DNA of 15,642 bases from IMG/VR virus record IMGVR_UViG_3300029700_000039, positions 1-15,642 of that record, one strand, 5' to 3'. Within the stretch, counting starts at the first letter, position 1, and each line of letters opens with the position of its first letter. The position numbers and the translations under genes were made by a program. Shown piece after piece: positions 1 through 15,642 of this stretch. This DNA comes from a virus. The notes beneath the pieces are model-generated. The model did not search any database, was not told the DNA's origin, and saw nothing but the letters and a program-made list of their open reading frames with translations.

Positions 1-84
1 CTGGCCAGCCATGAACCTTTGTTCGGACACCGCCGCGGGAAGACCGTCTTCCTGGTCTTTATGAAATCTACAACCCCCAACTGA
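1..84 (+). CDS. 3' end of an upstream CDS running off the window (hypothetical)
   Basis: Frame 1 is open from base 1 to TGA at 82-84 (...GKTVFLVFMKSTTPN*), which is 12 nt before the next start. No recognisable motif. Confidence 0.3.
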   Translation: MASHEPLFGHRRGKTVFLVFMKSTTPN

Positions 85-96
85 CACTTTTTTGAT

Positions 97-864
97 ATGG
101 CCGGAGACTGGATCAAGGTGGAACACACGACACCGGACAAACCCGAAGTGGTGAAGCTGGCCGGCATCCTTGGAATTGATCAGGATGCCGTTGTCGGCAA
201 GCTGCTTCGCCTCTGGATTTGGGCTGATCAACAATCCGTTTCTGGTAACGCCATTACCGTTACAAATTCGTTTCTCGACCGTCTCGTATTCTGCCCCGGC
301 TTTGCTGCTGGGCTTGTCAAAGTCGGCTGGTTGAATGGACGCGAGGGCCTCCTTTCAATCCCCAATTTTGACCGCCACAACGGCCAATCCGCCAAGAATA
401 GGGCCAATACGAACCGCCGTGTTGCGAATAGCAGAAAAGCTCATCATGAGCGAGTTGCAAAAACATGTAACGAAAATGTAACGCTCGAACCGTTACAAAA
501 ACCGTTACCAGAGAAGAGAAGAGAAGATAATACTACTACTACAACTACAACCGGGCGCGAGGTTTGCCAATTTCCGAAGGACGTTTCCGAGGTTGACCGT
601 TTTATGGACGCCCAGGTTCTGCACCCGCTTGGAGACGAGCTGACCCGGTGCGCGGAACGGTTTTTCAACGAACAGTCCGCCGTTGGATGGCGAAACCGGC
701 ACGGCGTCCCCCTGGCGGACTGGCGGCCCATGGCTCGCCAATACGCTGCCACCTGGGCCCGGAACAATGCGGACGCGCCCGGTCTGAAACCCGCCAATAC
801 CGTGGGAACCAAGCCAAAATCAACGACTAAACCATCAAGAAGAGATGACCTCTGGAAAGATTGA
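97..864 (+). CDS. Phage replication initiator / replisome-organiser-like protein (lambda O-like architecture)
   Basis: 255-aa ORF with an ATG start. The N-terminal ~110 aa (WIKVEH...LRLWIWADQQ...VKVGWL...IPNFDRHNGQSAKNRA) resembles phage replisome-organiser/DnaD-like N domains. A low-complexity linker (EKRREDNTTTTTTTG) separates a Trp/Arg-rich C domain. A DnaC-like loader lies directly downstream and overlaps it. Family assignment is from memory, not searched. Confidence 0.6.
   Translation: MAGDWIKVEHTTPDKPEVVKLAGILGIDQDAVVGKLLRLWIWADQQSVSGNAITVTNSFLDRLVFCPGFAAGLVKVGWLNGREGLLSIPNFDRHNGQSAKNRANTNRRVANSRKAHHERVAKTCNENVTLEPLQKPLPEKRREDNTTTTTTTGREVCQFPKDVSEVDRFMDAQVLHPLGDELTRCAERFFNEQSAVGWRNRHGVPLADWRPMARQYAATWARNNADAPGLKPANTVGTKPKSTTKPSRRDDLWKD
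245..263. repeat. Inverted hexamer pair GTAACG-N7-CGTTAC inside the initiator gene
   Basis: GTAACG at 245-250 and CGTTAC at 258-263. The 7-nt spacing is the same as in the central pair at 478-496. Confidence 0.6.
465..552. repeat. Iteron-like cluster plus polypurine/TAC low-complexity tract (candidate ori)
   Basis: ATGTAACG at 465-472 and 476-483 (11-bp phasing). AACCGTTAC at 489-496 and 501-508 (12-bp phasing, opposite orientation). Then (GAGAA)x3-GATAA at 511-530 and a TAC/AAC repeat at 531-552. All of it lies in the codons for the inter-domain linker. Confidence 0.5.
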
Positions 865-1585
865 CGAACCCATTAAACCCCAGGGAGGACTGAAAGGAGT
901 TAATCTTGAAAGCCTCTTGGAATCCATCACCCTGCTTGCCGAGGACGACGGAAGAAGCATTGAAGAGCTGGAAGCGGAAGCGCTGGCTGCTGAAAAGCAG
1001 CGGGAAGAAGAACGCCGGGCGGCATACGAACGCCTGGGCCTGATTGATCGCGGCTTTCCCCGACGCGCTATTGATTGTCTCGACGAAGTAACTGGGGATC
1101 CATGGAAGAAAGCCCTCCGTGACTCCTACCGCCTCGTTTTAACCCCTGGGAGCATCATTGTGCTGAACGGTCGATACGGCACCGGGAAAACGGTATTGAG
1201 CACGTTTCTTGGACGCATCATGTACAGGCGAAAGAAGCGCGTACTCTATACCAAGGCCTATGATTACACGATGGCCTTGAGAGAGACGTTTAACGGCAAC
1301 GGCTTAGAATCCGATGTCATGAAGCGATACAAGGCGCCGTATCTTCTGGTGCTGGACGAGTATCACGAGGTCAAGGACACGGACTTTGCAGGCGCTGCGC
1401 TGGAACGGCTCATTGACTACCGGCACCAGAACGGCAAACCGACCATCATCATCGCCAACTACAGCCCCGCCGCCCTTGAAGATCGACTCGGGCCGGCCAT
1501 TGTTTCCCGCATCCACCTTTGCGGCACCATCATTACCTGCAATTGGACATCCTACCGCGAAATCAACTACCATCCCCGGGAATAG
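845..1585 (+). CDS. DnaC/IstB-like AAA+ helicase loader
   Basis: 246-aa ORF. Walker A is GRYGTGKT, Walker B is YLLVLDEY. The C-terminal IIIANY...VSRI region is typical of DnaC/IstB ATPases. It overlaps the initiator gene by 20 nt. Confidence 0.85.
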   Translation: MTSGKIDEPIKPQGGLKGVNLESLLESITLLAEDDGRSIEELEAEALAAEKQREEERRAAYERLGLIDRGFPRRAIDCLDEVTGDPWKKALRDSYRLVLTPGSIIVLNGRYGTGKTVLSTFLGRIMYRRKKRVLYTKAYDYTMALRETFNGNGLESDVMKRYKAPYLLVLDEYHEVKDTDFAGAALERLIDYRHQNGKPTIIIANYSPAALEDRLGPAIVSRIHLCGTIITCNWTSYREINYHPRE

Positions 1586-1619
1586 CCCTGGAATCTCGTA
1601 TACCCTGGAATCTCGTATA
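1586..1619. repeat. Perfect tandem duplication of 17 bp (CCCTGGAATCTCGTATA x2)
   Basis: Copies at 1586-1602 and 1603-1619 are identical. A degenerate third copy (CCCCGGGAATAG) lies just upstream over the stop codon. The repeat fills nearly the whole 37-nt gap between the convergent genes. Confidence 0.95.
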
Positions 1620-1622
1620 GGT

Positions 1623-1823
1623 CTATTCGTCCGGCAATCCGTGACGGGTGATTAGCTCCATCAACAGCTCCATGGAAGGACTCGTTTTTCTGGACCCGCC
1701 CAACCATTGCCACACCGCCATTTCCGTCACACGCAACATTTGCGCAGCCTTTTTGACCGCAGAAGTTTTGGATCGCAAATGGTATCTGGACTGCACCCAA
1801 TCAACAAATTCTTGAATAGTCAT
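1623..1823 (-). CDS. Small helix-turn-helix DNA-binding protein (Cro/YdaS/Aca-like)
   Basis: 66 aa. The segment KKAAQMLRVTEMAVWQWLGG fits an HTH (helix, turn, recognition helix with W). Its start ATG overlaps the stop of the upstream gene (ATGA at 1820-1823). Confidence 0.7.
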   Translation of the reverse strand: MTIQEFVDWVQSRYHLRSKTSAVKKAAQMLRVTEMAVWQWLGGSRKTSPSMELLMELITRHGLPDE

Positions 1824-2185
1824 AGCTGTGCCAGGGCGGCATGCACCGCCCTGGAATCATGGTTAGAGGGCTTCAACGCGGCGGAGTCCTGGAACCAGTT
1901 AAGGTTTTCCGGGTCTATCTCTTCACCTTTCACCTGCGTGAAAGTCATGAAGATTTCCACGGGGTTTCCGTTTTCGTCGTATCCGGGCGCGGAGTATTCC
2001 TCGGTGTATTCGTCCCCGTCTTCCGCGTCGTTGTAGCATCCGGCAAAAAGACGATTGGTTAATTCCATTTGGCGAGCAGCATAGTAGGTGTGTCCTTCAA
2101 AATCATAGCTACCGAATTCGCGTTCAAGCGCGCTCAGATTGATTTCTTCGCCGTCTTCCGTGGTGATGATTTTGTTGTCGTTCAT
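1820..2185 (-). CDS. Strongly acidic small protein of unknown function (121 aa from ATG 2185)
   Basis: The ORF track gives 1820-2269, but that start sits inside the palindrome/promoter. The internal ATG at 2185 (MNDNKIITTEDGEE...) is preferred. Hand count gives 26 Asp+Glu against 7 Lys+Arg. No recognisable catalytic motif. Confidence 0.65.
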   Translation of the reverse strand: MNDNKIITTEDGEEINLSALEREFGSYDFEGHTYYAARQMELTNRLFAGCYNDAEDGDEYTEEYSAPGYDENGNPVEIFMTFTQVKGEEIDPENLNWFQDSAALKPSNHDSRAVHAALAQL

Positions 2186-2255
2186 TGTCTTGTTCTTTCT
2201 GATTTGGTTTTGGATTGTGTCTTCGTTCGGTCCCTTACCTCCCGTCAACAAGGTC

Positions 2256-2284
2256 AATATACTAAACAATGTTTAGTATAGCAA
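2256..2284 (-). promoter_or_regulatory. Sigma70-like promoter with embedded 23-bp perfect palindrome (operator)
   Basis: On the minus strand: TTGCTA (2284-2279), 17 nt, then TATATT (2261-2256). The palindrome TATACTAAACA-A-TGTTTAGTATA occupies 2258-2280, covering the whole spacer and overlapping both promoter hexamers. Confidence 0.55.
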
Positions 2285-2469
2285 GAGAAAAAATGAAAAA
2301 AGAAGATTTTTTTCGTTGTCGTCCTCCATCAAAAAATGATAGGAGGAGGCGTTCTTTCTGAACGTTCAGCCCTTCGGGGCTGTGGATTAAAACGATCGCA
2401 AGATCATCCGGGCGGCAACGCCCATTTCCCTTAAAAAGGGGCGGTTTTTTTCGAAGCCGCCCCTTTTTT
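2270..2469 (+). ncRNA. Candidate structured small RNA (unknown class)
   Basis: Plus-strand hairpins: 2322-2347; 2367-2382 (CAGCCC-UUCG-GGGCUG); 2394-2405 (GAUC-GCAA-GAUC); 2410-2423 (GGGCG-GCAA-CGCCC). A terminator stem at 2438-2444/2457-2463 is followed by U6. A possible promoter is TTACCT (2235-2240), 17 nt, TATACT (2258-2263). The 5' end is a guess. Confidence 0.3.
2433..2469. terminator. Bidirectional rho-independent terminator
   Basis: AAAAA, then GGGGCGG (2438-2444), a 12-nt loop, CCGCCCC (2457-2463), then TTTTTT (2464-2469). It sits directly after the stop of the minus-strand zinc-ribbon gene (TAA 2470-2468), and a U-tract is available on both strands. Confidence 0.75.
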
Positions 2470-2983
2470 ATTCCGGGACGGATGGAGCCTCCAGGATCCG
2501 CCATCCGGCCCCCGTGCCTCTTCCCGATTTGCGGAAACGGGAGGCGGCGCAGGTCAAGAGTTTATAAATCTTTTTGCCTTCGGTTTCGCCAAAACGGGTG
2601 ACCATGTACAGCTTGAGATTGCGCGCCGTTACCTCTTCTCCTTCCGGCGACTCCACGCGCCATACTTTGGCGTGGCAATTCGTCTCAAATTTCCCGGTCC
2701 TCGGATGCTTGCGAGGTCCCCAAACGCCACGATGACGGCAGGCCTCCAAAAACGCTGCGGACGTGATTTTTCTCCCTCGCTGGGCGCGGTTGGCGCACTC
2801 CGCAGAGCAGTATTGACGGCGCCACAGTTTTTGGGCCCGGAATACGTTCCCGCACACAGGGCATGTGAGCGTTTCCCAGGCCTCCGCATAGTGAGCCTGG
2901 AGGCAGGCCCGGGAACAGTACACGCTGTCGCGCTTGCCCGCGCGGGGAGGAACATCCTTGCCGCAGATAGGACATCGTTTCAT
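2468..2983 (-). CDS. Double zinc-ribbon protein with a homing-endonuclease-like C-terminal DNA-binding module and no evident nuclease motif
   Basis: ATG at 2983 gives MKRCPICG.... The track's 2992 start is a GTG three codons upstream. Two CPxCG...YCSxxC modules are present. The C-terminal VWRVESPEGEEVTARNLKLYM...GWRI resembles the W-x-SP-x-G...NL...GW module of free-standing phage endonuclease-like proteins (from memory). Confidence 0.65.
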   Translation of the reverse strand: MKRCPICGKDVPPRAGKRDSVYCSRACLQAHYAEAWETLTCPVCGNVFRAQKLWRRQYCSAECANRAQRGRKITSAAFLEACRHRGVWGPRKHPRTGKFETNCHAKVWRVESPEGEEVTARNLKLYMVTRFGETEGKKIYKLLTCAASRFRKSGRGTGAGWRILEAPSVPE

Positions 2984-3035
2984 ACGCCCCACAGTTTGAA
3001 AAATGAGCGTTGCGAATCAAGAACAAACAACGCGC

Positions 3036-3065
3036 TTGAATTGGATATCCGTTGCCTCCTATAAT
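3036..3065 (+). promoter_or_regulatory. Near-consensus sigma70-type promoter upstream of the packaging/late operon
   Basis: TTGAAT (3036-3041), 18 nt, TATAAT (3060-3065). The 8-bp palindrome GGATATCC (3043-3050) lies in the spacer. Confidence 0.5.
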
Positions 3066-3133
3066 AGAGCCGCAGGAAAAATAAACCTATTACCAAAAGA
3101 AAACCGGGGCGGCCGAGCCTCTACACCGAAGAA

Positions 3134-3583
3134 TTGGCCGCCGAAATAGCCTCCCGCCTTGCCAACGGAGAAACCATGAAATCCATCTGCTCCGATGACC
3201 ACATGCCGGATGTTTTAACTGTCTGGAGATGGAGACACGAGCGGGAAGATTTTTGTAAACTCATTCAACGCGCGCGGGAAGCGCAGTCGGAAGCTATGAT
3301 TGACGCCTGTCAGGAGCTGGCCGACGAAGCCGCGAAAGTCGCCCTTGACCCGGAATGCGGCTCCGCCTCCGTCGCCGCGAAGAAGCTCGCCATTGAAACC
3401 CGGCTGAAAGTCGCCGCCCGCTTCGCGCCGGAGAAATTCGGAGACCGGGTCCGCCAGGATGTCGCCGGCGTTCCCGGCGCGCCGCTGGAACGGAAAATCA
3501 CGCTGGACCCTGAGCAGCTCGCCCAGCTGCAGGAAGACGAGAAAACCGCGCTGGAAACCATCGCCGGCAAACTCCATCCCTAA
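3134..3583 (+). CDS. terS: Terminase small subunit (HTH type); coding probably extends upstream to about 3089
   Basis: The first canonical start is TTG at 3134. The in-frame upstream translation ITKRKPGRPSLYTEEL continues the typical GRPS-YT-EL-A--I---LA-GE----IC N-terminus of this terS family. After that come W-W and a basic/acidic helical region. Confidence 0.8.
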   Translation: MAAEIASRLANGETMKSICSDDHMPDVLTVWRWRHEREDFCKLIQRAREAQSEAMIDACQELADEAAKVALDPECGSASVAAKKLAIETRLKVAARFAPEKFGDRVRQDVAGVPGAPLERKITLDPEQLAQLQEDEKTALETIAGKLHP

Positions 3584-3616
3584 CCCGTCAGGACACGAAT
3601 CCCCGTCAGCTTCTTC

Positions 3617-4963
3617 TTGCGCCATATCCTCCGCCTTGACCCCTATCCATGGCAGGTGGAGTCCATCAAGGCGTTGTCCCTGGGTAAGCTGACCCTGGGA
3701 GGGAAAAGCGTGGCTCTGGTCGCTCCTAACGGATCCGGCAAGACAAGCAACTGCATCGCTCCCGCCATCCTGTACTTTCTCACCTGTTTTCCGCGGGGAC
3801 AGGTCCCCGTTACGTCCTCATCGTGGATGCAGGTGGAAAAGCAGCTCTTTCCCGCGCTCCGCCGCTACATGGACAATCCTTTCTTTTCCGGCTGGACCTT
3901 CAACAAGACGGAGATCCGCACGCCGGAGGGAGGCTTTGCCGTGGGTTTCTCCACCGACAACGCGGGACGTGCGGAAGGATGGCATCCAAAAATCTCGCCC
4001 GACGTGGATCCTGTCTTTTACGTCCTGGACGAGGCCAAAACCATTCCGGACTCCATCTTCACCGCCGTTTCCCGCTGCACGCTCTTTCACGCGTTCATCA
4101 CCTCGTCGCCGGGCGCCGATTCCGGCACCTTCTACGACTGCTTTCACAAAAATTCATCGCTCTACTACAAAATCCGCGTCAAATACGAGGATTGCCCGCA
4201 CATTGAAATCAACGACCCGGGCAAGGCCGAACGCCTGAAAAAAGAATATGGTGAGCAGTCCTCCTTCTACCGCTCGGCCATCCTTGGTGAATTCACCGAC
4301 CTTGACGGACAATCCGTCATTTCCCGCCGCGCTCTCATGGAGCTGGTCAACAACCCGCCTCCCTTCCTGGACACCGGAGAGACCTGCGGCGGCTTCGACT
4401 TTGCCGCGGGAGGCGATGAAAACGTCTTTGCGGCCGGGCAGGGCAACCGTTTTTTCATCGCCGACCACTGGTCCGACCCGGACACCGTAGGAGCGCGCGG
4501 ACGTTTCCGCCGGAAGGCCGCCGAACTCGGCATCTCTGCCGACCGCATCTTTGCCGACGGCGACGGCCTAGGGCTCCCCATCATTGATGACTTCCGCGCC
4601 GAGGGCTTTCCGGTGCACTCCTACCGCGGCGGGTTTCCGGCGGATGACACACAAGCCTTTGTCAATCTGCGAGCCCAGGCATGGCGGGCTCTCGCCCGCG
4701 CCATCGAAGAAAAAGAACTCATCCTCGACATTGACGAGGATACGATTGAGCAGCTGGTTGCTCCACGACTCCAAACCGACGCAATAGGCCGCGTCCGCAT
4801 TGAAAGCAAAGAAGATATGGCAAAGCGGGGCGTTCGTTCCCCAGACCGGGCCGACGCCCTTGTGATGGCCTGGCACGCGCGCCGGAACAGCGGACTGGCG
4901 CGGACGCTGGGAGCCTGGTACGCCCGTCCCGTGTCATCAAAACGCGCTTACGGGAGATATTAG
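3617..4963 (+). CDS. terL: Terminase large subunit
   Basis: 448 aa with a TTG start. Walker A is APNGSGKT, Walker B is VFYVLDEA. The C-terminal nuclease-domain signature is ...ESKEDMAKRGVRSPDRADALVMAW. Confidence 0.9.
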   Translation: MRHILRLDPYPWQVESIKALSLGKLTLGGKSVALVAPNGSGKTSNCIAPAILYFLTCFPRGQVPVTSSSWMQVEKQLFPALRRYMDNPFFSGWTFNKTEIRTPEGGFAVGFSTDNAGRAEGWHPKISPDVDPVFYVLDEAKTIPDSIFTAVSRCTLFHAFITSSPGADSGTFYDCFHKNSSLYYKIRVKYEDCPHIEINDPGKAERLKKEYGEQSSFYRSAILGEFTDLDGQSVISRRALMELVNNPPPFLDTGETCGGFDFAAGGDENVFAAGQGNRFFIADHWSDPDTVGARGRFRRKAAELGISADRIFADGDGLGLPIIDDFRAEGFPVHSYRGGFPADDTQAFVNLRAQAWRALARAIEEKELILDIDEDTIEQLVAPRLQTDAIGRVRIESKEDMAKRGVRSPDRADALVMAWHARRNSGLARTLGAWYARPVSSKRAYGRY

Positions 4964-4965
4964 GG

Positions 4966-5005
4966 TTGACAACATATCAAGATATCAATATATGACGATA
5001 TGTAA
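4966..5005 (+). promoter_or_regulatory. AT-rich island with a promoter-like hexamer pair and four tandem ATAT-octamers
   Basis: TTGACA (4966-4971), 17 nt, TATATG (4989-4994). The octamers are ATATCAAG, ATATCAAT, ATATGACG and ATATGTAA at 4974-5005. The island lies in the 53-nt gap between terL and the portal gene. Confidence 0.4.
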
Positions 5006-5016
5006 GCAATCGCAGG

Positions 5017-6465
5017 GTGGTGAAACGGTATCACGCGGGGTTCCTGTCCCCGAATCGAAGGTCCAACTCCTTCCCCTGCAACCACCTTTTCTTTAGCCTC
5101 AGGTTTAACGCCGTCAAAAATATCCTCAACGCCCCGAAGCTGGTAGCCCAACAGGAGACCAGAATCAAGGAGCTTGAAACGGACCTGGCCCGGCGAGCGT
5201 TGACGGAACAGAGCCGGAAGCCTAACCAGCCTCAATGGTACGAATATTGGGACCCGTTACAGGGCGCCGACCTGCAAACCCTGATTGACGCCCGGAACGA
5301 AGCGCGGCGTGGAGCCTTTGCCCGCCAAATGCTCATTTGGGACGAGGTCATCTACTCGGACGGCTTGATGGGCATGCTCTATTCCCGGCTCATTGAAAGC
5401 GTCTCCATGCAGGGATGGAAGATTGACGCCGCGGACGACAGCCCGGAAGCCCAGCGTCAGCAGAACGCGCTGGAAGAATTCTATCACTCCGTCACCGGAC
5501 TTCAACAGGCCTTTGGGCAGTTGGCCTCCGCTATGTTTTACGGGTACGCCCACCTCCAATACATCGAAGATTCCTGGGGCCGCCGCTTTGAATTCATCCC
5601 GCAGCGATACTGGGTGCGGCCCGGAGAGCTGAACGAATGGCAGTTTAATCCCCAGTGCTACATCGGGGTCGACACGGGCGAGAGCGTAGAGGAAGAAACG
5701 CTCGTGGTCATGGAGCACCGGAACCCCATTCTTTTTCCGGCAACCCGCGCCTCTTTTGAGCGGAATCACGCCAAAGTTACGTGGGACAACCATATGGACC
5801 GCTACGGGAGCGCCCCGGTCATCATCACGGCGCCCAAGGACGCGAGCGCCGCCGTCATGGACGCGCTGGAACGGGCCTGTGAGGAACTCAAATCGGGAGC
5901 CTCCATTGTGCTTCCTCCCGGCTGCACCGCCGAACCGTTGAAAGCCTCCAACATCAACGAAAACTATTTCCTATCCCGAATCAACATGTCCGACAAGGAC
6001 CAGGTGCGGTTTGTAATGGCCGGCACTCTGACCGTCCTGAATGAATCAGGATCCGGCACGCTGGCCGGGGGAGCGCACACGGATAGCTGGAATTCGGTCG
6101 TCTCCGCGGTCTGTTCCAAGGTCGCCGAAGCTTTTAACGCCGCCATCAGCCCGCTTGTCCTGGGAGACGGCGAACCGCTGGCCCGCCTCCACATCACTTT
6201 TGACACCGTCCAGACCCCGCTGCAGAAAGCCGAGGAAATCGCCGCGCTTGCCGACGGAGGCGTCCGCCCCGAGAAGACCGAGATTGAAGAAAAGATCGGC
6301 ATGTCGATCGAGGACACGCAGGACCCCGTTCCGGTGACGGCGGCGGCCAACAGGGAACCGGAAAAAGCACTCATTCCGCCCGATGCTTATGAACAGCTTC
6401 AGCAAATGATTTACGCCGGACTCATGAAAGGATTTACCGATGATCAGCACGAAACAAATCAATGA
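5017..6465 (+). CDS. Portal protein, Mu gp29 / DUF935-like
   Basis: 482 aa with a GTG start (an alternative in-frame TTG is at 5200). It sits directly after terL. The region ARRGAFARQMLIWDEVIYSDGLMGMLYSRLIESVSMQGWKI matches my memory of the DUF935 N-terminal core. The start is uncertain. Confidence 0.75.
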   Translation: MVKRYHAGFLSPNRRSNSFPCNHLFFSLRFNAVKNILNAPKLVAQQETRIKELETDLARRALTEQSRKPNQPQWYEYWDPLQGADLQTLIDARNEARRGAFARQMLIWDEVIYSDGLMGMLYSRLIESVSMQGWKIDAADDSPEAQRQQNALEEFYHSVTGLQQAFGQLASAMFYGYAHLQYIEDSWGRRFEFIPQRYWVRPGELNEWQFNPQCYIGVDTGESVEEETLVVMEHRNPILFPATRASFERNHAKVTWDNHMDRYGSAPVIITAPKDASAAVMDALERACEELKSGASIVLPPGCTAEPLKASNINENYFLSRINMSDKDQVRFVMAGTLTVLNESGSGTLAGGAHTDSWNSVVSAVCSKVAEAFNAAISPLVLGDGEPLARLHITFDTVQTPLQKAEEIAALADGGVRPEKTEIEEKIGMSIEDTQDPVPVTAAANREPEKALIPPDAYEQLQQMIYAGLMKGFTDDQHETNQ

Positions 6466-7552
6466 CCTGTCCCGACCCGCCAACGGCTGGTTCCACGTTG
6501 AGAAAAGCGGAGACCATGACGTTGACTACGGCGAGGGTCCCGCCGTGTTGCGCATCGACGAGCAGGCGATCCGGGACATGGTGGACGACTTCAACGCCCG
6601 CACCTTTGACGGCCCGGGCATGCTCATCGACGGCGACCACCTGAGCCACGACCTTTCCCGCGATACTCGGGCCCTCGGATGGCTCAAGAGGCTGGACACC
6701 TACCGCGACCCTTCCGGCACGCTGGAACTCTACGGGTTCATCGAATGGACGCCGCGCGGCCTGAAGATGCTGCAGGACAAGGAATACACGCAATCATCCA
6801 CCGAATATGGCGAAGGCATGACTTTGACGGACGGCGTCTACCGCCCGTCGCGTCTGACCGGCTTCGCTCTGACCAACCGGCCGCGCATCAAGGGAAAGCG
6901 GCCTCTGGTCAACCGACAGACTTCCCCCGCCTCCGACGAGGCCGGGGGCGACCCCAAAAGCCCCGAAGAGGGGGAAACAACCCAGAAAACCAATATGGAA
7001 AACGACGATAGAGAATATCCGTCCAAGGAGATGGACAAGGCCCAGCGGGCCCTGTTCGACTCCCTGCTTGACAAGCTGGATGTCGAATTTGACGGCACCG
7101 ACGACATGAGCAGGGCGATCCTCGGACGCCTTGATGAACTGCTCTCGCTGGAAAAGCGTGAGAAAGACCACGTGAACGCCGAAGTGGACGACGCCGTCAG
7201 CACGTACGAAAACGCGCTGGACGAGGAAGAACGCGAGGAATTCACGGAAGAACGCCGGGAAGAGCTGAAAAACTCTCTCCGGGAAAGCCCCGCCGCGCTG
7301 AACGCTTTTATCCGTGCGCTCAACCGCCAGACTCCGCCCAAAAAACCGGATCAGGAGGAAAAGAAGGAACTGCCGAAAAGGACGCCTCTGAACCGCCGCG
7401 CGACGCTGAATCCCCCTGACCCATTCCGCAAGAAGGAATCCATTGACGGATTCAACAACCGCGTCAACGAACTGATCAAGGACGGCATGAAGCGCTATGA
7501 CGCCTACCAGAAAGCGACCGAAGAAGGCTTCATCGTCTCCGCCAACCGATAA
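6440..7552 (+). CDS. Head maturation protease / scaffold fusion, Mu gpI-like
   Basis: 370 aa. The N-terminal domain (GWFHV...LIDGDHLSHD...ALGWLKRL...GFIEWTPRG...YTQSSTEY...LTGFALTNRPRIKG) follows the Mu-like prophage protease I pattern. The C-terminal half is acidic and helical (scaffold-like). Confidence 0.8.
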   Translation: MISTKQINDLSRPANGWFHVEKSGDHDVDYGEGPAVLRIDEQAIRDMVDDFNARTFDGPGMLIDGDHLSHDLSRDTRALGWLKRLDTYRDPSGTLELYGFIEWTPRGLKMLQDKEYTQSSTEYGEGMTLTDGVYRPSRLTGFALTNRPRIKGKRPLVNRQTSPASDEAGGDPKSPEEGETTQKTNMENDDREYPSKEMDKAQRALFDSLLDKLDVEFDGTDDMSRAILGRLDELLSLEKREKDHVNAEVDDAVSTYENALDEEEREEFTEERREELKNSLRESPAALNAFIRALNRQTPPKKPDQEEKKELPKRTPLNRRATLNPPDPFRKKESIDGFNNRVNELIKDGMKRYDAYQKATEEGFIVSANR

Positions 7553-7570
7553 CTTAACCCATATCAACCA

Positions 7571-8002
7571 ATGCCATCACTCAACGTAACCCAGAAAAGC
7601 GCCATCGTCTATTTCAACGCCCCTGAAGGCGTTGACCTGTGCGGACAGGAAGGAACCGTCGTGGCGCTGACCGCCAATCCTGACATCCCCGAATTTGTCG
7701 GAACTCCGTTGTCCGCCATCCCCACGCAGACGCAGCTGCTCGGCGTCGTCCTGCAGGGACAGCCCAACAAGGGAACCTGCGTCGCCGCGCTCGTCGGAAT
7801 GTATGCCGGCCTGATCAAGGCGGCTCTATCCGACACGCCCGGAACCATCAACGCCGGAACGCCCGTCACCATCACGGCCAACGGGACATGGAAGGCCGCC
7901 GCCAGCGGCGACACCGTCTATGCCCGCGTTATTCATGCCCAGTGGGAACAGGGCCTTGTGGAAATCGGCTTCGTTCCGTCCTACCAGGTCGCCGCAGCCT
8001 AA
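7571..8002 (+). CDS. Small head protein, DUF2190-like (possible decoration/cement protein)
   Basis: 143 aa, Gly/Ala/Val/Thr-rich beta-type sequence lying between the scaffold and capsid genes. Resemblance to DUF2190 is an impression only. Confidence 0.5.
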   Translation: MPSLNVTQKSAIVYFNAPEGVDLCGQEGTVVALTANPDIPEFVGTPLSAIPTQTQLLGVVLQGQPNKGTCVAALVGMYAGLIKAALSDTPGTINAGTPVTITANGTWKAAASGDTVYARVIHAQWEQGLVEIGFVPSYQVAAA

Positions 8003-8222
8003 CTATTAACCCCAACCAACAGAAAGACCAAGAACAAGGGCTACTCCATTTTGCTCCGCCGTTCAGTTCACCGATGTCCTGACCTCCTATTCCGCGGGGT
8101 CCGGGAACACCGAAGAGAACTCCATCATCAGCCGCATCGCTCCGATCGTCCCGGTCTATGACCTGAATTTCCAGTACAAGGTCTGGGACACGGAATCGGC
8201 CTTCACCGTCCAGCCCATCCAG

Positions 8223-8963
8223 GTGGGGCCGGGCGAACCTCCCCGCCAGACCGTCCTGCGCGGAAGAAACGAAACCGACACCCTTCAGGGCTACGGCTTG
8301 ACGCTGCCCATCCCTGACGCCTTGCTGGGCGTCAACCGGGAAAAGGCGCAGGCCATCACCCTGGCGGAATACAAACTCATCGAATCCCAGTTTGTGACGT
8401 CGTACGAATACGAACGCGCCAAGCTTCTGATGAGCCAGCTTCCGGCCGCTTCCGGGATGGGTGACTGGGCCAACCAGCAGAAAAACCCGTTGGCGGATCT
8501 GGACCAGGCGATCCTGTCCATCAACGCCGCAACCGGACACATGCCGAACACGATTGTCTTCGGCATCAACGCATGGCAGCTGCTTCGCTCCAACACGCTC
8601 GCGCGTCAGGTGGTTTCCTTCAACAGCGTCGGCCTGTTCAACGAAGACCTTCTTCGCATGGCTCTGATCCGGCCCATCCGGGATATTTACATCGCCTCCA
8701 TGCCGTACCGCGACGCTTCCGGCGACGCGAAAACCATCATGGAAAACGAAGTCTATGTCCTGTACAAGGAAGACTCCCCGACGCAGTTCGACGCCTCCGC
8801 CGTCAAGACCTTCGGTCTTTCCGGCAAGCTTCGCCGAGAAGTCATTACCGAATACAAGCCGACGCCGGCCTTGACGCTCGTCACAAACCGCGTCTACTCG
8901 CTGACCAAGTTGACGAACCCCAGCGCCATCGTCCGCATCGACGCGACGGCCACCGGCGATTAA
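8223..8963 (+). CDS. Major capsid protein (lambda gpE / Phage_cap_E-like); coding clearly extends upstream of 8223
   Basis: The coordinates give the first canonical start (GTG 8223). The frame is open from 8010, and the upstream part (...SIISRIAPIVPVYDLNFQYKVWDTESAF...) looks like the conserved N-region of gpE-like capsids (compare lambda YVSPIV). Also compare NTIVFGINAWQLLRSN with lambda IIVFDPKGWALFRS. Confidence 0.8.
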   Translation: MGPGEPPRQTVLRGRNETDTLQGYGLTLPIPDALLGVNREKAQAITLAEYKLIESQFVTSYEYERAKLLMSQLPAASGMGDWANQQKNPLADLDQAILSINAATGHMPNTIVFGINAWQLLRSNTLARQVVSFNSVGLFNEDLLRMALIRPIRDIYIASMPYRDASGDAKTIMENEVYVLYKEDSPTQFDASAVKTFGLSGKLRREVITEYKPTPALTLVTNRVYSLTKLTNPSAIVRIDATATGD

Positions 8964-8983
8964 CCCTAACGCCCGCCTCCATC

Positions 8984-9460
8984 ATGTCCGCCTTTCCTGC
9001 CTGGTCCACGATTTCCACCGACGAAGCCGATCGGCTGCTCGGTCTCAACACCGCCGAACGCGATGCCCTGGTAACAGCCGGGGAACAGCGCAGCCTGGAC
9101 TACCGGGATGTCATGATGGAGGCGGTCAACGATGTCTGCATGACCATCCGCGGGGCGCTGGCCAACAACCTCGCCCTGCGGCAATCGCTCCAGAACAGCG
9201 GCATGTACGACATTCCGCAAAGCATGCGGTCCCTGGCATGGCCGCTGATCATCCGGCAGCTCTACCTGCGCTACCAGCTTAACCTGACCGAGACGCGCCA
9301 GAAGGCCGCCGAATCGGCGGACGCGATGCTGGCGCTCTACGCCAAAGGGGACATGCTGCCGGAAAGCGTGGACGGCTCCGCGCCCGCGGATCCCGCCTAC
9401 ATGATGCCGCGCTACACGCGCCGCCCCTGGTTCAACCCCATGCGAAGCACCTACCGATGA
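8984..9460 (+). CDS. Head-tail connector/adaptor-like protein (DUF1320 / Mu gp36-like impression)
   Basis: The internal ATG at 8984 (MSAFPAW...) of track ORF 8573-9460 lies 21 nt after the capsid stop. 158 aa, helical. Its stop overlaps the next start (ATGATGA). Confidence 0.5.
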   Translation: MSAFPAWSTISTDEADRLLGLNTAERDALVTAGEQRSLDYRDVMMEAVNDVCMTIRGALANNLALRQSLQNSGMYDIPQSMRSLAWPLIIRQLYLRYQLNLTETRQKAAESADAMLALYAKGDMLPESVDGSAPADPAYMMPRYTRRPWFNPMRSTYR

Positions 9461-10593
9461 TGACCGCCGCCCAAATGGAGATGATCGCCAACGACTACGC
9501 CGAACGCGCCTTCTTCGTGTCCGGGGTGGAACCCGGCGTCATCCTGTCCGATTTTGAGGACAAGGCGTCCCAGGTCGCCTCGGGGGCCTTGAGCTACGAG
9601 GAAGCGCAGCGGGCCATCCGCGAAGCCCTGCGCCAGCAGGGCTACCGCCCCCCGGCGACGGGGCAGGGAGGCATTCAGGATTTGTCCTCATGGGTCCGCA
9701 TCCAGGTCGTCATGGAAACTAACGCGGCCATGGCTCACGGCTACCGGAACTGGTATAACTGGATGCAGGACGAAGACACGGCCGCCTTCAAATTTTACCG
9801 CTCCCAGGGGCGGGAAGACCCGCGCTATTGGGCCGAACGCTGGAACCGTGCCCGGGCCGGGCTGGAAGAAGAAGCCACGGAAGCGGTATCATCCGGCTTC
9901 ATCCGCGGGGAAATCGTCGGCTATGCGCTGGCGGCCTCCGATATCTGGATCCGCCTTTCGCGCTTTGGCACGCCTTACCCGCCCTTTGACTACCTGTCCG
10001 GCATGAACATTGCCCCCGTGGGCGCCGAAGAAGCCCGCGCGGCCGGGCTGGCCGTGTCGCGCGTCCGTCCCGCTCCCCCCAGCTTCAACGCAACCTTGGA
10101 AAGCAACGCCAAAGGCGTGACGGAATCCAACAGGAACAAGATCCGCCGCATCCTGAAAGACGCCGTGCGCGTCAAGACCGGGAACGACGGCAATACCACC
10201 TTTGCCTACACGGACCCGAACGGCACGCGCCCTTACACGGACGCGGAACTGGCGGACGTCCTGTCCGGGGATTTCCCGGAAGAGATCCCCTTGCGCCAGG
10301 CCCAGGCCTTCAGCCTGGCGGCAGCCGGGGGAGCCGTGGCCGGAACGCTGGCGGCCCTCTACCTGGACCGTCTGCTGGACCGCCTGTCCTCCGAGCCGGA
10401 AGGCGTCTGGTACGCCCGGCCCGCAGACGTGGCCGCCGCGACCTCCCGCCAGTATATCCCCGTTTCCCCAAAGGAAGAGGGGGAATTCACCTGGCGCCTT
10501 AATTCCGGGCACGTCAAGAAAGTGGAAGACGTTGCCGGAGCCCTCCGCGTGGAACTGCCTACCCCTTACGTTTTACCCTCCAAATGGCTGTAA
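9457..10593 (+). CDS. Minor head protein, Phage Mu F / SPP1 gp7-like
   Basis: 378 aa. The motifs VRIQVVMETNAAMAHGYRNW and FGTPYPPFDYLSGMN parallel the R-TE---A-N-G and PP-H-NCRC regions of the Mu F family (without the Cys pair). Confidence 0.65.
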   Translation: MMTAAQMEMIANDYAERAFFVSGVEPGVILSDFEDKASQVASGALSYEEAQRAIREALRQQGYRPPATGQGGIQDLSSWVRIQVVMETNAAMAHGYRNWYNWMQDEDTAAFKFYRSQGREDPRYWAERWNRARAGLEEEATEAVSSGFIRGEIVGYALAASDIWIRLSRFGTPYPPFDYLSGMNIAPVGAEEARAAGLAVSRVRPAPPSFNATLESNAKGVTESNRNKIRRILKDAVRVKTGNDGNTTFAYTDPNGTRPYTDAELADVLSGDFPEEIPLRQAQAFSLAAAGGAVAGTLAALYLDRLLDRLSSEPEGVWYARPADVAAATSRQYIPVSPKEEGEFTWRLNSGHVKKVEDVAGALRVELPTPYVLPSKWL

Positions 10594-11249
10594 CCGTCCA
10601 TATTGACCAAACCGCGATTGACCGGGCGTTTGCCGACATGGAGCCGTCCGCGGCCCGGCACAAAACCGCCATCCGCAAGGCCGGCGTCGCCCTGAGCCTG
10701 CTTATCCAGGAAACCCTGCGCCAGCAGGGCAAGGACTACTACGACGGCGCGGCGGACGCCACCACCATGGAAGAAACCGCCGAGGGCGTCAGCGTCTCCA
10801 TCGCCTGGCGCGGCATCGGTCTTCACTGGATCGGCACGCAGGGTTATCTGGGCGGCCCGCTCCGGCCCACGGGGCGCACCTCGGAAATCACCGGGAACCC
10901 GATCCGGAACCTGGCCATCCCTACCATCAACGCCCCCCGCGGCCATGGCGGGGCCCGGAGCATTTACAGCGCCGGCTTCCGCCGAGAGGACTTGCAATTC
11001 ATCCCCTCCAAAAACGGAGGACGCAACGGCAATGTGACCGGCGTCCTCATCCTCAAGACGGCACAATCATCTACCGGAAAGAAAGCGGCCCGCAAGCTGT
11101 TCCGGCAGGGAGCCAGAACAGGCGACGTGCTCTACGTGCTGTGCCGCGAAGTCACGATCCCGCCCACGCCGGGAATTCTCCCGACGATGGACCGGATGGC
11201 GCAGCGCGCCGCGGAAACCTACCTCGCCAACATCGGAAACGAACCATGA
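10584..11249 (+). CDS. Virion morphogenesis / neck protein (function tentative)
   Basis: 221 aa. Translationally coupled on both sides (10-nt overlap upstream, ATGA downstream). Weak resemblance to Mu G-type morphogenesis proteins. Confidence 0.45.
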   Translation: MAVTVHIDQTAIDRAFADMEPSAARHKTAIRKAGVALSLLIQETLRQQGKDYYDGAADATTMEETAEGVSVSIAWRGIGLHWIGTQGYLGGPLRPTGRTSEITGNPIRNLAIPTINAPRGHGGARSIYSAGFRREDLQFIPSKNGGRNGNVTGVLILKTAQSSTGKKAARKLFRQGARTGDVLYVLCREVTIPPTPGILPTMDRMAQRAAETYLANIGNEP

Positions 11250-11776
11250 TCCCTTCCATCGACCAGACCATGTGCCGGCGCATCATTGAGCGCCTGAAGA
11301 ACCTGGGAGCCCTGAACTGCCACATCTTCGAACGTCCCTTTGACCCACAGTACGCCGCCAACGACATCATCATGTCGGCGATGGGCAACAACGGCGTTGT
11401 TCTGGTGTGCCCCGGGGACGCGGCAGAATACCAGGACGGGCACGGACAAACGGAAGCGCCGACGATGTGGCGTCAGTATTTCATCATCGCCTCCATTTAT
11501 CACAACGCGTCCCTGTTCCCGGCGGCATGCCTGACGCCTGATTATTATCTTCGGGCGGTGGGGGACGTGATTGAAGAAGCCCTGTGGAACTGGAATCCTC
11601 TTCCCTTTTCCGCACCGGCGATGATGAAACCCAAAATCAAAGGCCGTTTTTCCTCCTCTGCCATCATTGACGGCGAGAAGCGGCAAATGAACGTTTTGAC
11701 CGTGGATTACCGTGTCCCGGTTAATATTAACATGAGAACCAAGCAAGAATTCTATGAACAAAGCATCAGCAACTGA
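11246..11776 (+). CDS. Structural/neck protein (Gp37/DUF1834-like impression)
   Basis: The internal ATG at 11246 (MIPSIDQTMCRRIIERLKNL...) overlaps the preceding stop (ATGA). 176 aa. Confidence 0.45.
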   Translation: MIPSIDQTMCRRIIERLKNLGALNCHIFERPFDPQYAANDIIMSAMGNNGVVLVCPGDAAEYQDGHGQTEAPTMWRQYFIIASIYHNASLFPAACLTPDYYLRAVGDVIEEALWNWNPLPFSAPAMMKPKIKGRFSSSAIIDGEKRQMNVLTVDYRVPVNINMRTKQEFYEQSISN

Positions 11777-12020
11777 CAAGAAGGCCGTGCGGAAGAGCGC
11801 CCCGAAGCCGGACGAATCTTCCGAAACCGCCGGCAAAACGCCGTCCGCACCGGACGAGAAGAAGAAAACAACTGACAAGAAGGCCGTGCGGGTCATTCGC
11901 ACCCGTGCCGAACTGGACGGAGGGCTGGTGATCAGCCTCTCCATGAAAACCGACACCCCGGAACTTCCCGCGACCATCGCGGAAGCTCTGGCAACCCTCA
12001 ACCTTGTTGACATCAAATGA
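11754..12020 (+). CDS. Small Lys-rich protein with an internal TDKKAVR duplication
   Basis: 88 aa. The N-half looks disordered and basic. Its stop overlaps the next start (ATGA at 12017-12020). It contains the 23-bp direct repeat at 11770-11792 and 11869-11891. Confidence 0.55.
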   Translation: MNKASATDKKAVRKSAPKPDESSETAGKTPSAPDEKKKTTDKKAVRVIRTRAELDGGLVISLSMKTDTPELPATIAEALATLNLVDIK

Positions 12021-12214
12021 GCAAAGCAGCTGCAGCCAACACCGAACCGGAGAAGAAGACGGAGCAGGCCGCCGTCATCAACACGAACATCCTCATTCTG
12101 TCCAAAGAAGTGAGGATAGGGCGCTCAACGTTCTTGAAAGGAGCGCATATTCGTGTTACGAAAGAACTCGCCGATAAGCTGGAAGCCGACGGCAAGGCAA
12201 CAATCATCTACTAA
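12017..12214 (+). CDS. Small hypothetical virion-module protein
   Basis: 65 aa with a coupled ATGA start. A short disordered N-terminus is followed by a compact beta-like C-terminus. Confidence 0.55.
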   Translation: MSKAAAANTEPEKKTEQAAVINTNILILSKEVRIGRSTFLKGAHIRVTKELADKLEADGKATIIY

Positions 12215-12321
12215 CCGTTTCAAGCACCAGGGCAACTACATACGATCCCACATTCACGAACCGCAACGTCACGCCGCAGATTACCGGCGTTCTGGCTATT
12301 TTCCTCCCCGACGGCATCAAG

Positions 12322-12879
12322 GTGACCGAAGACGAGGGAGCTTCTTACGTCACCGGGCCGGACCAGTTTCCGACGCCTCCGACGTCTCCGCCAACGGATC
12401 CGACCGCCGGGCCTGAACAGCCCTGGGTGAGCTTCGGGCTGCTGGGAGCGTTCCAGTCCGTCGCCACCCAGGTCGAAGGGGAAGTGACGCGCTTTTACGG
12501 CGGTGCGCTGGGATATCGCCAGCAGCGCAAGAACACCACGACCGGCAAGCGGATGACCTTCACCACGCCGGACATGTCCCCCGAATGGTTCCAGCTTTCT
12601 TTCGCCTTGGGAGCGCCTCCCGCCAACGGCGAGGAATCGACCACCGTCGGACATGGCGGCGACAATAAGATTGAGGGGTATCTTCACTTCTGGTATCAGA
12701 ACGACGTGGGTACTATCTATCTGGTCGGAACGGCGCATGGCGCCTTGCGCCTCCTGCAGGATCCCGAACACACCACGGCGATTGCTTCACCCCAGTTCGA
12801 GTTCGAAATGGATTATCGCGGCAAGTACCAGTTCACGCCCTCCAATGTGCAGGACGTGACGCCGGCGCCGGGTTCCTGA
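12322..12879 (+). CDS. Abundant structural protein, possibly a major tail/tube-like protein
   Basis: 185 aa from the first canonical start (GTG 12322). The frame is open from 12178. A Pro/Thr linker (PTPPTSPPTDPT) precedes a beta-rich domain. A terminator-like hairpin follows. Function is tentative. Confidence 0.5.
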   Translation: MTEDEGASYVTGPDQFPTPPTSPPTDPTAGPEQPWVSFGLLGAFQSVATQVEGEVTRFYGGALGYRQQRKNTTTGKRMTFTTPDMSPEWFQLSFALGAPPANGEESTTVGHGGDNKIEGYLHFWYQNDVGTIYLVGTAHGALRLLQDPEHTTAIASPQFEFEMDYRGKYQFTPSNVQDVTPAPGS

Positions 12880-12891
12880 CGCGTTTCACCA

Positions 12892-12924
12892 GGGGGCGCG
12901 CTGCGCCCCCGCATCCTCTTTTTT
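12892..12924 (+). terminator. Probable intrinsic terminator/attenuator after the 185-aa structural gene
   Basis: GGGGGCGC (12892-12899), loop GCT, GCGCCCCC (12903-12910), then GCATCC and TCTTTTTT (12917-12924). The U-tract is displaced 6 nt from the stem. Confidence 0.5.
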
Positions 12925-12993
12925 CCCAGGCAGCAGGCAGGCAAATACGATATCCGGACCGTCACGGGGCTGAACCAGTCGCTGGTCGTCCGT

Positions 12994-14811: not shown

Positions 14812-15218
14812 TGATGAACGACGCAGAAATACAAATTCAGTTTCCGAAGCCTGGAACATGGCAGGAATTCACTCTGACGCCCATTTATCAGGACAAGGGC
14901 GGATATAGACCTCCGGCACGCTATACGCAGGACGAGATACCGGCGGAGCAGGCACCGGCCATGCAGGCCGTTGTTGCCGCGCTGGTTGGACTGGCGGAAC
15001 CGTGGCAGGCGGTGCAGGTGTGGGCAAGGCTGGGAAAAGATGTCCTGACCCTTGCGGAGGATGGTGCCTATACAATGATTGATGCGGTGTCTTTGACCGT
15101 TGAGGCCGTCCATGCGGAGACCAAAGGCCGCAGGATTTTTACAGTCTCGGACTACCCGGTTTTTGTCCTCACGGACCCCGCCGCCGTGGAGTTTTTCAAG
15201 CATTTCACTAAACAATAA
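14811..15218 (+). CDS. Hypothetical protein downstream of the fibre (possible fibre accessory/chaperone)
   Basis: 135 aa. Its ATG overlaps the fibre stop (TAATG). No motif recognised. Confidence 0.55.
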   Translation: MMNDAEIQIQFPKPGTWQEFTLTPIYQDKGGYRPPARYTQDEIPAEQAPAMQAVVAALVGLAEPWQAVQVWARLGKDVLTLAEDGAYTMIDAVSLTVEAVHAETKGRRIFTVSDYPVFVLTDPAAVEFFKHFTKQ

Positions 15219-15221
15219 ACC

Positions 15222-15500
15222 ATGAACATCAATAAACAAGACATTGAAAAGGCCCAGCAGGCGGCATCCGCCCGCTGGGGGAATTGGGTCAAGTACGTCA
15301 TCGGTGCCATTATCGGGGCGTTGGCCGCTGCTGGCTATATCACCGTAACTGGCTGCGGGCACTCCGTGGACGTCACCCCGGACCGCACCGAGGTATGCAA
15401 GGACGGCTCCTGCCTGGTGCTGGAACCGGGGCATATCTCCTACAGTCAGGCCCAGCCTGTTACGGACGTTCCGCCCATCGTGCAAACACTCAAGAAGTAA
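15222..15500 (+). CDS. Small membrane-anchored protein / putative lipoprotein
   Basis: 92 aa. The hydrophobic stretch WVKYVIGAIIGALAAAGYITV is followed by a lipobox-like VTGC (Cys45). The mature part is short with 3 more Cys and a Pro-rich tail. Confidence 0.55.
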   Translation: MNINKQDIEKAQQAASARWGNWVKYVIGAIIGALAAAGYITVTGCGHSVDVTPDRTEVCKDGSCLVLEPGHISYSQAQPVTDVPPIVQTLKK

Positions 15501-15504
15501 AGGC

Positions 15505-15642
15505 ATGTGTAAGCTCTCCGAAGTACCGGCACGTTTCCTGGATTTTGCCGAGGCTTCCCCCGTGTTTGCCTGCGTCCTGATGTCGCTGACGATATGCGGC
15601 GGGGCATGCTTGTACATCGGGGAGGTGGTCAGCCACCACAAT
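15505..15642 (+). CDS. Partial CDS (5' end), small membrane protein
   Basis: ATG at 15505 is open to the window end: MCKLSEVPARFLDFAEASPVFACVLMSLTICGGACLYIGEVVSHHN. It has one clear hydrophobic helix. It is absent from the ORF track because it is truncated. Confidence 0.4.
   Translation, partial: MCKLSEVPARFLDFAEASPVFACVLMSLTICGGACLYIGEVVSHHN

Follow-up and report, generated by a model that had tools for sequence, protein, structure and literature searches.

A probably self-repressed cassette of an acidic-protein gene and a helix-turn-helix gene in an Akkermansia phage, with a candidate anti-defence role

The DNA analysed here comprises positions 1 to 15,642 of the IMG/VR virus record IMGVR_UViG_3300029700_000039 (15,642 nucleotides, referred to as the window) and carries, at 1623-2284, a small cassette in which the gene for a strongly acidic protein is followed by the gene for a minimal helix-turn-helix (HTH) protein. 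The window originates from an Akkermansia phage or prophage and has 86% identity to Akkermansia phage DTMo-2021a across 67% of its length. The cassette is read as an Aca-like (anti-CRISPR-associated), self-repressed accessory operon of a temperate Akkermansia phage with a candidate anti-defence effector, a tentative reading that is given slightly less than an even chance. A first-pass annotation, made from the letters alone, had pointed to an arrangement like that of anti-CRISPR (Acr) and Aca genes. This layout was supported and STRENGTHENED: a small acidic gene comes first, an HTH gene follows, and the promoter contains an operator-like palindrome. The type of operon is known, and what appears to be new is the family of the effector and its predicted fold.

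Promoter, putative operator and the HTH protein

A consensus scan returned only one good promoter match on the minus strand, the sigma-70-like TTGCTA-N17-TATATT at 2284-2256. The 17-nucleotide (nt) spacer of this promoter is filled by a palindrome that overlaps both hexamers. The perfect 23-base-pair (bp) palindrome reported by the first-pass annotation is indeed present at 2258-2280, and its size class was observed once, compared with 0.03 times expected from shuffled windows. No second copy of the palindrome was found in the 15.6-kb window at up to three mismatches. For comparison, about 30 related Akkermansia phage loci of roughly 10 kb each were retrieved. One copy of the operator is present per locus, always at the cassette promoter.

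Across these relatives, all operator types share the hexamers TTGC.. and TA..TT at a spacing of 17 nt, and the sequence of the spacer varies. Three spacer forms were observed, each of them palindromic and at the same promoter position, and the type tracks a single residue (Q, K or E) of the putative recognition helix of the HTH protein. The first type, TACTAAACA-W-TGTTTAGTA, is paired with the recognition helix VWQWL; the second, TACTATAAA-T-TTTATAGTA (GTTACTATAAA-T-TTTATAGTAAC), with [VI]WKWL; and the third, ATCATT-G-AATGAT, with VWEWM. The K-type operator accompanies three protein architectures, of 66, 311 and 434 amino acids (aa), and the K-type helix lies in the C-terminal HTH of the 311-aa protein, which consists of four HTH units, and in the N-terminal HTH of the 434-aa multi-HTH protein. 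A symmetric change of the operator at a fixed promoter site, matched to the helix that would read it, is what a cognate pair of repressor and operator predicts, and autorepression is therefore supported. Binding of the HTH protein to the operator is strongly indicated by these pairings, and the protein most likely represses its own promoter.

The two multi-HTH proteins have unusual architectures, with the same operator upstream. In locus L019 (5366-6670), the 434-aa protein replaces the HTH protein and contains about eight repeats of the form LLGK.PD.EIA..G.S...V...R.KLGI. In locus L018 (5367-6302), the replacement is the 311-aa protein, in which the Cro-like unit is present in four copies.

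The HTH identity of the second gene product had been given in the first-pass annotation. Its profile matches are sub-threshold only; the sequence pattern also supports the assignment, as do matches to HTH families on longer relatives with this domain. The sub-threshold matches in Pfam are YdaS_toxin (E 0.015, 15.6 bits compared with a cut-off of 30), P22_Cro (E 0.03) and HTH_23, and a repressor family of PHROG was matched at E 0.005, also below threshold. Searches against the PDB with the profile or the sequence gave no match. In all Akkermansia loci with sufficient downstream DNA, the acidic gene has the HTH gene behind it, and the four loci without it end 348-749 nt past the start of the acidic gene.

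A 5' leader of about 70 nt lies between the promoter and the acidic gene. Its conserved block is kept across sequence-divergent Akkermansia clades, and its translation-initiation region recurs before the extra genes inserted in relatives. A 149-aa open reading frame (ORF) initiated by TTG at 2269 was also considered for the acidic gene and rejected: it would start within the promoter, and what looks like an N-terminal extension corresponds to the conserved leader. The promoter/operator segment of about 159 nt is flanked by an 11-nt direct repeat. In locus L003, a single copy of this repeat is found (5990-6000) and the whole segment is missing; the segment looks like a portable promoter module that is gained or lost by recombination at the repeat. 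The 11-nt repeat is also the translation-initiation region that is reused by inserted genes.

The acidic protein and its family

In a profile search of 1.84 billion representative proteins, about 170 clusters (50% identity) matched the profile of the acidic protein. These proteins share a core of about 85 aa, FG..f.Gk.Y.L..qAe.TNR.F.G...DA.eGE.Y..EwsA...D..Gn...V.WqF...KGeE.epe...W, and acidity is conserved throughout the family, with a mean net charge of -12.6 in 84 stand-alone members. When the acidic protein and 60 diverse relatives were searched against Pfam, PHROGs, NCBIfam and PADLOC, no family was matched at threshold. A sequence-profile search of the PDB with the 60-member alignment found nothing relevant and one spurious lectin match. 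The only match among isolate phages (tblastn) is BN12_31, a hypothetical protein of Paenibacillus phage BN12. A tblastn search of plasmids (PLSDB) found nothing, so that in PLSDB the family does not occur as a plasmid leading-region gene. A metagenome scan for relatives gave one short contig, and no description of the cassette locus was found in the literature.

The AlphaFold2 (AF2) models of the acidic protein are consistently beta-rich with a long central hairpin. The predicted local distance difference test score (pLDDT) was 81 with a shallow alignment and rose to 89.4 when remote members were added, with a predicted template modelling score (pTM) of 0.76. A Foldseek comparison of two AF2 models with the PDB gave no neighbour (best E 0.12 and 0.37, template modelling score (TM) at most 0.28). 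One of the models was also compared with BFVD, where only uncharacterised phage proteins were found, the best being from Salinivibrio phage SMHB1 (TM 0.55). By these searches, the acidic protein would be the first Akkermansia representative of a beta-rich domain, about 85 aa long, that is widespread and uncharacterised and of which neither the family nor the fold is described in the libraries searched.

The first-pass annotation had described a 121-aa protein with 26 Asp/Glu and 7 Lys/Arg. These counts are right (pI 4.1), but the length is not native, as the relatives have 107 aa. Over 1586-2300, the window is identical to the related locus L008 except for one A that is missing between 1881 and 1882, and the +1 frame of the window reads ...RVEAL* in a three-frame translation. 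Nearly all of the homologues (n=42) are 107 aa long with the C-terminus ...DRVEA[RL]. The deletion exchanges the last conserved strand of the predicted beta-rich fold (DRVEAL), in which R103 and E105 are almost invariant, for an unrelated tail of 20 aa. The intact 107-aa protein has 27 Asp/Glu and 6 Lys/Arg and a net charge of about -21. The copy in the window may be impaired by the frameshift, or the deletion may be a sequencing error. Two further alleles depart from the common form. P0014 (93 aa, 19 contigs including NCBI genomes) has an internal deletion of 14 aa, residues 57-70, by which part of the central hairpin is gone, and P0001 (121 aa, from another assembly) has the same extended C-terminal frame as the window, reached via different frameshifts. 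Degraded alleles of the acidic protein may be frequent.

The ATGA overlap between the acidic gene and the HTH start is present in the window but is the product of this private frameshift, and translational coupling through it as a designed feature was rejected. In the relatives, the acidic gene stops at a TAA (1865-1863 in the window), which is followed by a spacer of 39-48 nt with a GC hairpin and then by the HTH start; the frameshifted ORF of the window reads through this hairpin. The position of the hairpin is kept in divergent relatives, its stem sequences differ, and a T-run follows it in L028 and L031. This suggests that the hairpin may act in partial termination or in stabilisation of the mRNA 3' end, favouring the product of the first gene.

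Proposed anti-defence role and alternative explanations

Judged from the genomes compared, the cassette is dispensable. DTMo-2021a shares 10 kb of late genes with the window (86% identity) yet has no cassette. In this phage (L002, CP084202), the block of initiator, DnaC, cassette and zinc-ribbon genes (compared with 101-3070 of the window) is swapped for ORFs of 174 and 378 aa, which is a modular exchange of the replication region. In L003, the element that carries the gene pair is another one, and genes for an N6_N4 methyltransferase and an integrase come after the pair. The operon also takes up additional coding sequence. In L010, L016 and L017, the leader and the acidic gene are separated by an extra gene of 85 aa, and in L005 and L012-14 the acidic domain is fused with an uncharacterised domain of about 95 aa. 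In L009 (4605-5324), a pentapeptide-repeat domain (PF00805, E 4e-24) continues in frame via the translated leader into the acidic domain; this predicts a fusion of about 239 aa, which may be truly polyvalent or may result from the loss of a stop codon between two genes. Every one of these inserts reuses one translation-initiation sequence, and on this sequence evidence the operon is a plug-in site within Akkermansia phages.

The more distant family members are found in various neighbourhoods. One is followed by a 48-aa BrnA-like ribbon-helix-helix (RHH) gene, with a pentapeptide-repeat gene four genes further downstream, and another by a 60-aa RHH-like gene (judged by eye; no Pfam match). Several members are fused to N-terminal RHH-like domains, of which that of P0097 is significant (DUF7557 above the cut-off; RHH_10 at E 2.5e-5, just below the cut-off) and the others are sub-threshold. 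One member lies two genes from an ArdC gene (PF08401, 2e-30, and MPTase-PolyVal, 2e-45) and a DUF1281_C protein, a Dam methylase immediately precedes another, and a third adjoins a serine integrase. In six unrelated phage contexts (the window, the P0193 contig, L032, L034, L038 and L048), the gene stands at or near the start of an operon divergent from terS/terL. It is a speculation that this terminase-divergent position is explained by early expression after DNA entry. Solitary members without a DNA-binding neighbour are found in L038, L048 and L033.

Self-repressed operons of this kind are known from anti-CRISPR loci. In the acrIF1-aca1 operon of Pseudomonas phage JBD30 and the acrIF8-aca2 operon of Pectobacterium phage ZF40, the HTH protein Aca represses the acr promoter via inverted repeats (PMC9765179). 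The cassette resembles these at the sequence level: the operon opens with one or more small acidic genes and closes with a small HTH gene, all in the same orientation, and an inverted repeat is embedded in the promoter. Also as in acr-aca operons, the cassette is dispensable, is located on a mobile element and has an upstream gene or domain content that varies among relatives. One known Aca family matches YdaS_antitoxin (PMC9765179), which is not evidence that the cassette HTH is a member of it. The cassette would work like an acr-aca operon and is not assigned to any named Acr or Aca family.

A second parallel is formed by fused regulators. In AcrIIA1 and AcrIIA13-15, an N-terminal DNA-binding domain represses the protein's own promoter and a C-terminal domain inhibits Cas9. 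The distant members in which an RHH- or HTH-like domain precedes the acidic domain in one protein would follow the same logic as a separate regulator, but in contrast to AcrIIA1 and AcrIIA13-15, the fused domains are mostly RHH-like and not HTH, and P0097 alone has a significant Pfam match. A third parallel is the mimicry of DNA, known from Ocr, ArdA and Arn and from the pentapeptide proteins Qnr and MfpA. The net charge of about -21 in 107 aa and the acidity of the whole family fit such mimics, one relative (L009) is in frame with a pentapeptide-repeat domain, and another member is found near ArdC. Unlike the mimics, the acidic protein has a predicted beta-rich fold with a long hairpin and no Foldseek neighbour in the PDB (best E 0.37, TM at most 0.27), so by its model it would be no structural relative of any solved mimic or Acr.

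In the proposed mechanism, a sigma-70-type promoter would drive a transcript that runs from the leader through the acidic gene and the intercistronic hairpin to the minimal Cro/YdaS-like HTH gene. The HTH protein, probably as a dimer, would bind the spacer palindrome and switch the operon off once its product suffices, in an Aca-like negative autoregulation, and the hairpin would probably lower the HTH output relative to the acidic protein. The acidic protein would be the payload and, most likely, a stoichiometric inhibitor that is active either at an early stage of infection or from the prophage. It would attach to a host protein at a basic surface used for binding nucleic acids, and the most plausible host protein is a component of restriction-type or other defence. 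The anti-defence role is proposed because of the operon architecture, the fused or adjacent regulators with their parallel in AcrIIA1 and AcrIIA13-15, the pentapeptide fusion, and the ArdC and methyltransferase neighbours; both the role and the inhibitor mechanism are thus suggested by association. A bolder proposal goes further: the acidic protein would found a new family of anti-defence effectors, structurally novel, with about 170 clusters in several phyla, encoded in a self-repressing plug-in module with a separate or fused HTH or RHH domain, placed at the first-expressed genome end, and the first such system for Akkermansia phages. This is possible but less likely than not.

Several observations weigh against the anti-defence reading. 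The first-pass annotation had suggested an Acr or a DNA mimic, and this kinship did not hold up: profile and Foldseek checks matched no known Acr, Ocr, ArdA, Arn or Ugi, and unlike in acr-aca operons, the effector is unrelated to known Acr proteins by sequence or fold and the HTH protein matches none of the Aca-related Pfam families at threshold. It had also been asked whether the HTH gene stands beside variable small genes. Extra genes and domains do join the operon, but the acidic gene and the HTH gene are co-inherited and co-diverge as a pair, unlike one Aca with interchangeable Acr genes, and the HTH gene is no anchor for interchangeable partners. L003 keeps both genes without the promoter/operator segment. 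In L033, the homologue stands alone beside a LysR gene on a contig that looks bacterial and shows nothing of a phage around it. Guilt by association is a weak argument here, given how often methyltransferases and small acidic ORFs turn up in the early regions of phages.

An alternative to the anti-defence reading is that the two genes form a regulatory pair without payload. The acidic domain would then be a sensor, co-repressor or anti-repressor that binds the cognate DNA-binding domain and tunes the repression by the HTH protein at the cassette promoter and possibly at other targets. A protein of this kind is known in CarS, which mimics an operator to bind CarA. The acidity would suit a basic DNA-reading surface, the acidic and HTH genes are co-inherited, and the acidic domain is repeatedly found adjacent to small RHH or HTH domains or fused C-terminally to them, as in two-domain repressors such as NikR. 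However, the operon in the window holds nothing else to regulate, and the single operator, in the window as in the relatives, is that of its own promoter. Many members stand alone without a DNA-binding neighbour (L038, L048, L033), and the fold of the partner varies between HTH and RHH while the acidic domain is constant, which is unexpected for a mimic specific to one domain. A regulatory pair is therefore regarded as unlikely, although it is the alternative that survives best.

Slightly less probable again is a moron that is expressed from the prophage and has another role, such as superinfection exclusion, lysogenic conversion or inhibition of a housekeeping DNA-binding protein, or that takes part in phage developmental control. 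The own promoter, the reverse orientation and the flanking terminator-like hairpins are classic moron traits, the GC content is below that of the flanks, and in other elements (L003, L036, BN12) the gene adjoins integrases or sits at prophage ends. Against this stand the related phages without the cassette, from which it follows that it is no core switch, and the fact that the acidic protein lacks the membrane or secretion signals typical of exclusion proteins. The position at the start of early operons in distant, lytic-looking contigs also fits a role at the infection stage better than one in the lysogen.

A toxin-first type II toxin-antitoxin or abortive-infection module like HigBA, BrnTA or HicAB, in which the HTH protein would be the autoregulating antitoxin and the module a prophage stabiliser or phage excluder, is improbable. 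The gene order and the size of the two small co-transcribed genes, the DNA-binding second protein and the palindromic operator in the promoter are as in such modules. In addition, the partners in distant relatives have weak matches of BrnA, HicB and Antitox_RHH type, and the HTH protein has weak antitoxin-like matches to MqsA and spr1629. Unlike the toxins of these modules, however, the first protein is strongly acidic (net charge -21), and no conserved catalytic-type His/Lys/Arg set is evident in it apart from one Arg. No toxin family of Pfam or NCBIfam and no PADLOC model was matched by the 60 diverse acidic members. The partners, at 48-66 aa, are essentially bare DNA-binding domains and seem to leave no space for a part that would neutralise a toxin, solitary (L033, L038, L048) and fused homologues exist, and an N-terminal RHH or pentapeptide fusion would be odd for a 'toxin'. 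The frameshifted and internally deleted alleles are neutral with regard to this explanation.

The toxin-antitoxin pair and a part in the lysis-lysogeny switch were the alternatives named by the first-pass annotation, and both are weakened. No toxin signature was found, and a switch is argued against by the single operator and by the absence of the cassette from the related phage DTMo-2021a.

Should the acidic protein prove to be an anti-defence effector, the counter-defence repertoire would gain both a new fold and a new family, and the family is one that Pfam, PHROGs and structure-based Acr screens do not see. The protein would also offer a way into the conflict between phage and host in Akkermansia muciniphila, a gut bacterium of therapeutic relevance for which few genetic tools exist. 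Whatever the function, the three pairs of operator and recognition helix form a natural specificity series that could yield orthogonal repressor-operator parts for Verrucomicrobia. More effectors could be mined by using the repeated pairing or fusion with minimal HTH and RHH domains as a guilt-by-association anchor.

Features of the locus and its surroundings

The features of the cassette and the neighbouring genes are collected in Table 1.

Table 1. Coordinates of the cassette, its regulatory elements and the surrounding genes in the window.
Feature	Position	Strand	Details
Replication initiator	97-864	+	PHROG 2509
DnaC-like loader	845-1585	+	
Cro/YdaS-like HTH gene	1623-1823	-	66 aa, pI 9.4 (basic), putative autorepressor
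Acidic ORF as read in the window	1820-2185	-	121 aa, frameshifted C-terminus; native stop 1865-1863
Intercistronic GC-rich hairpin	1831-1854	-	CCAGGGCGG / CCGCCCTGG; RNAfold -20.9 kcal/mol
1-nt deletion (missing A)	between 1881 and 1882	-	global alignment to L008, three-frame translation, protein alignment
5' leader	2186-2255	-	~70 nt; conserved block TTGTTGACGGGAGGTAAGGGACC and translation-initiation region CAGAAAGAACAAGACAATG
11-nt direct repeat, proximal copy	2192-2202		GTTCTTTCTGA, coding-strand form TCAGAAAGAAC; flanks ~159-nt promoter/operator segment
Sigma-70-like promoter	2256-2284	-	-35 TTGCTA (2284-2279), 17-nt spacer, -10 TATATT (2261-2256); consensus scan
Putative HTH operator	2258-2280		perfect 23-bp palindrome (11+1+11), TATACTAAACA-A-TGTTTAGTATA
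11-nt direct repeat, distal copy	2351-2361		second copy of the repeat at 2192-2202
Conserved upstream block	2362-2468		hairpins CAGCCC-TTCG-GGGCTG and GGGCGGCAACGCCC; terminator-like bidirectional hairpin 2433-2468
174-aa zinc-ribbon protein	2468-2992	-	two CxxC...CxxC motifs
terS	3134-3583	+	PF20901
terL	3617-4963	+	

As had been annotated, both cassette genes are antisense to their surroundings, opposite to the replication genes (97-1585, +) on one side and to terS/terL (3134-4963, +) on the other. A dip in the guanine plus cytosine (GC) content had also been reported, with neighbours at 60-67%. The dip is real but smaller than stated: the GC content is 43% in 2041-2220, 52% in the acidic gene, 50% in the HTH gene and 58.7% in the window, and the neighbouring genes are actually at 54-61%.

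The conserved block upstream of the promoter ends in the terminator-like bidirectional hairpin (2433-2468) that terminates the upstream zinc-ribbon gene, and the block accompanies the cassette into the different mobile element of L003. The hairpins at 2362-2430, written CAGCCC-CGAA-GGGCTG and GGGCGTTGCCGCCC, are conserved between unrelated cassette-carrying elements (L003 5935-5990). They could be a transcript-end or processing element. A search of 1400-3200 against Rfam gave no family at the gathering score, and the sub-threshold matches were driven by the terminator hairpin.

The zinc-ribbon gene is divergent from terS and is kept in relatives with the cassette. Its 174-aa product has a partial match to PHROG 1271 ('HNH endonuclease', E 3e-11) that is confined to the zinc-finger region.

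The gap of 37 bp that separates the convergent DnaC-like and HTH genes is occupied by a repeat. Two perfect tandem copies of the 17-bp unit CCCTGGAATCTCGTATA lie at 1586-1619, starting directly after the DnaC stop codon, and a further copy (76%) at 1849-1865 adjoins the intercistronic hairpin. These tandem units could be iterons or binding sites. Their copy number seems variable in relatives, with two copies in L005 and what looks like one in L009, L010 and L031.

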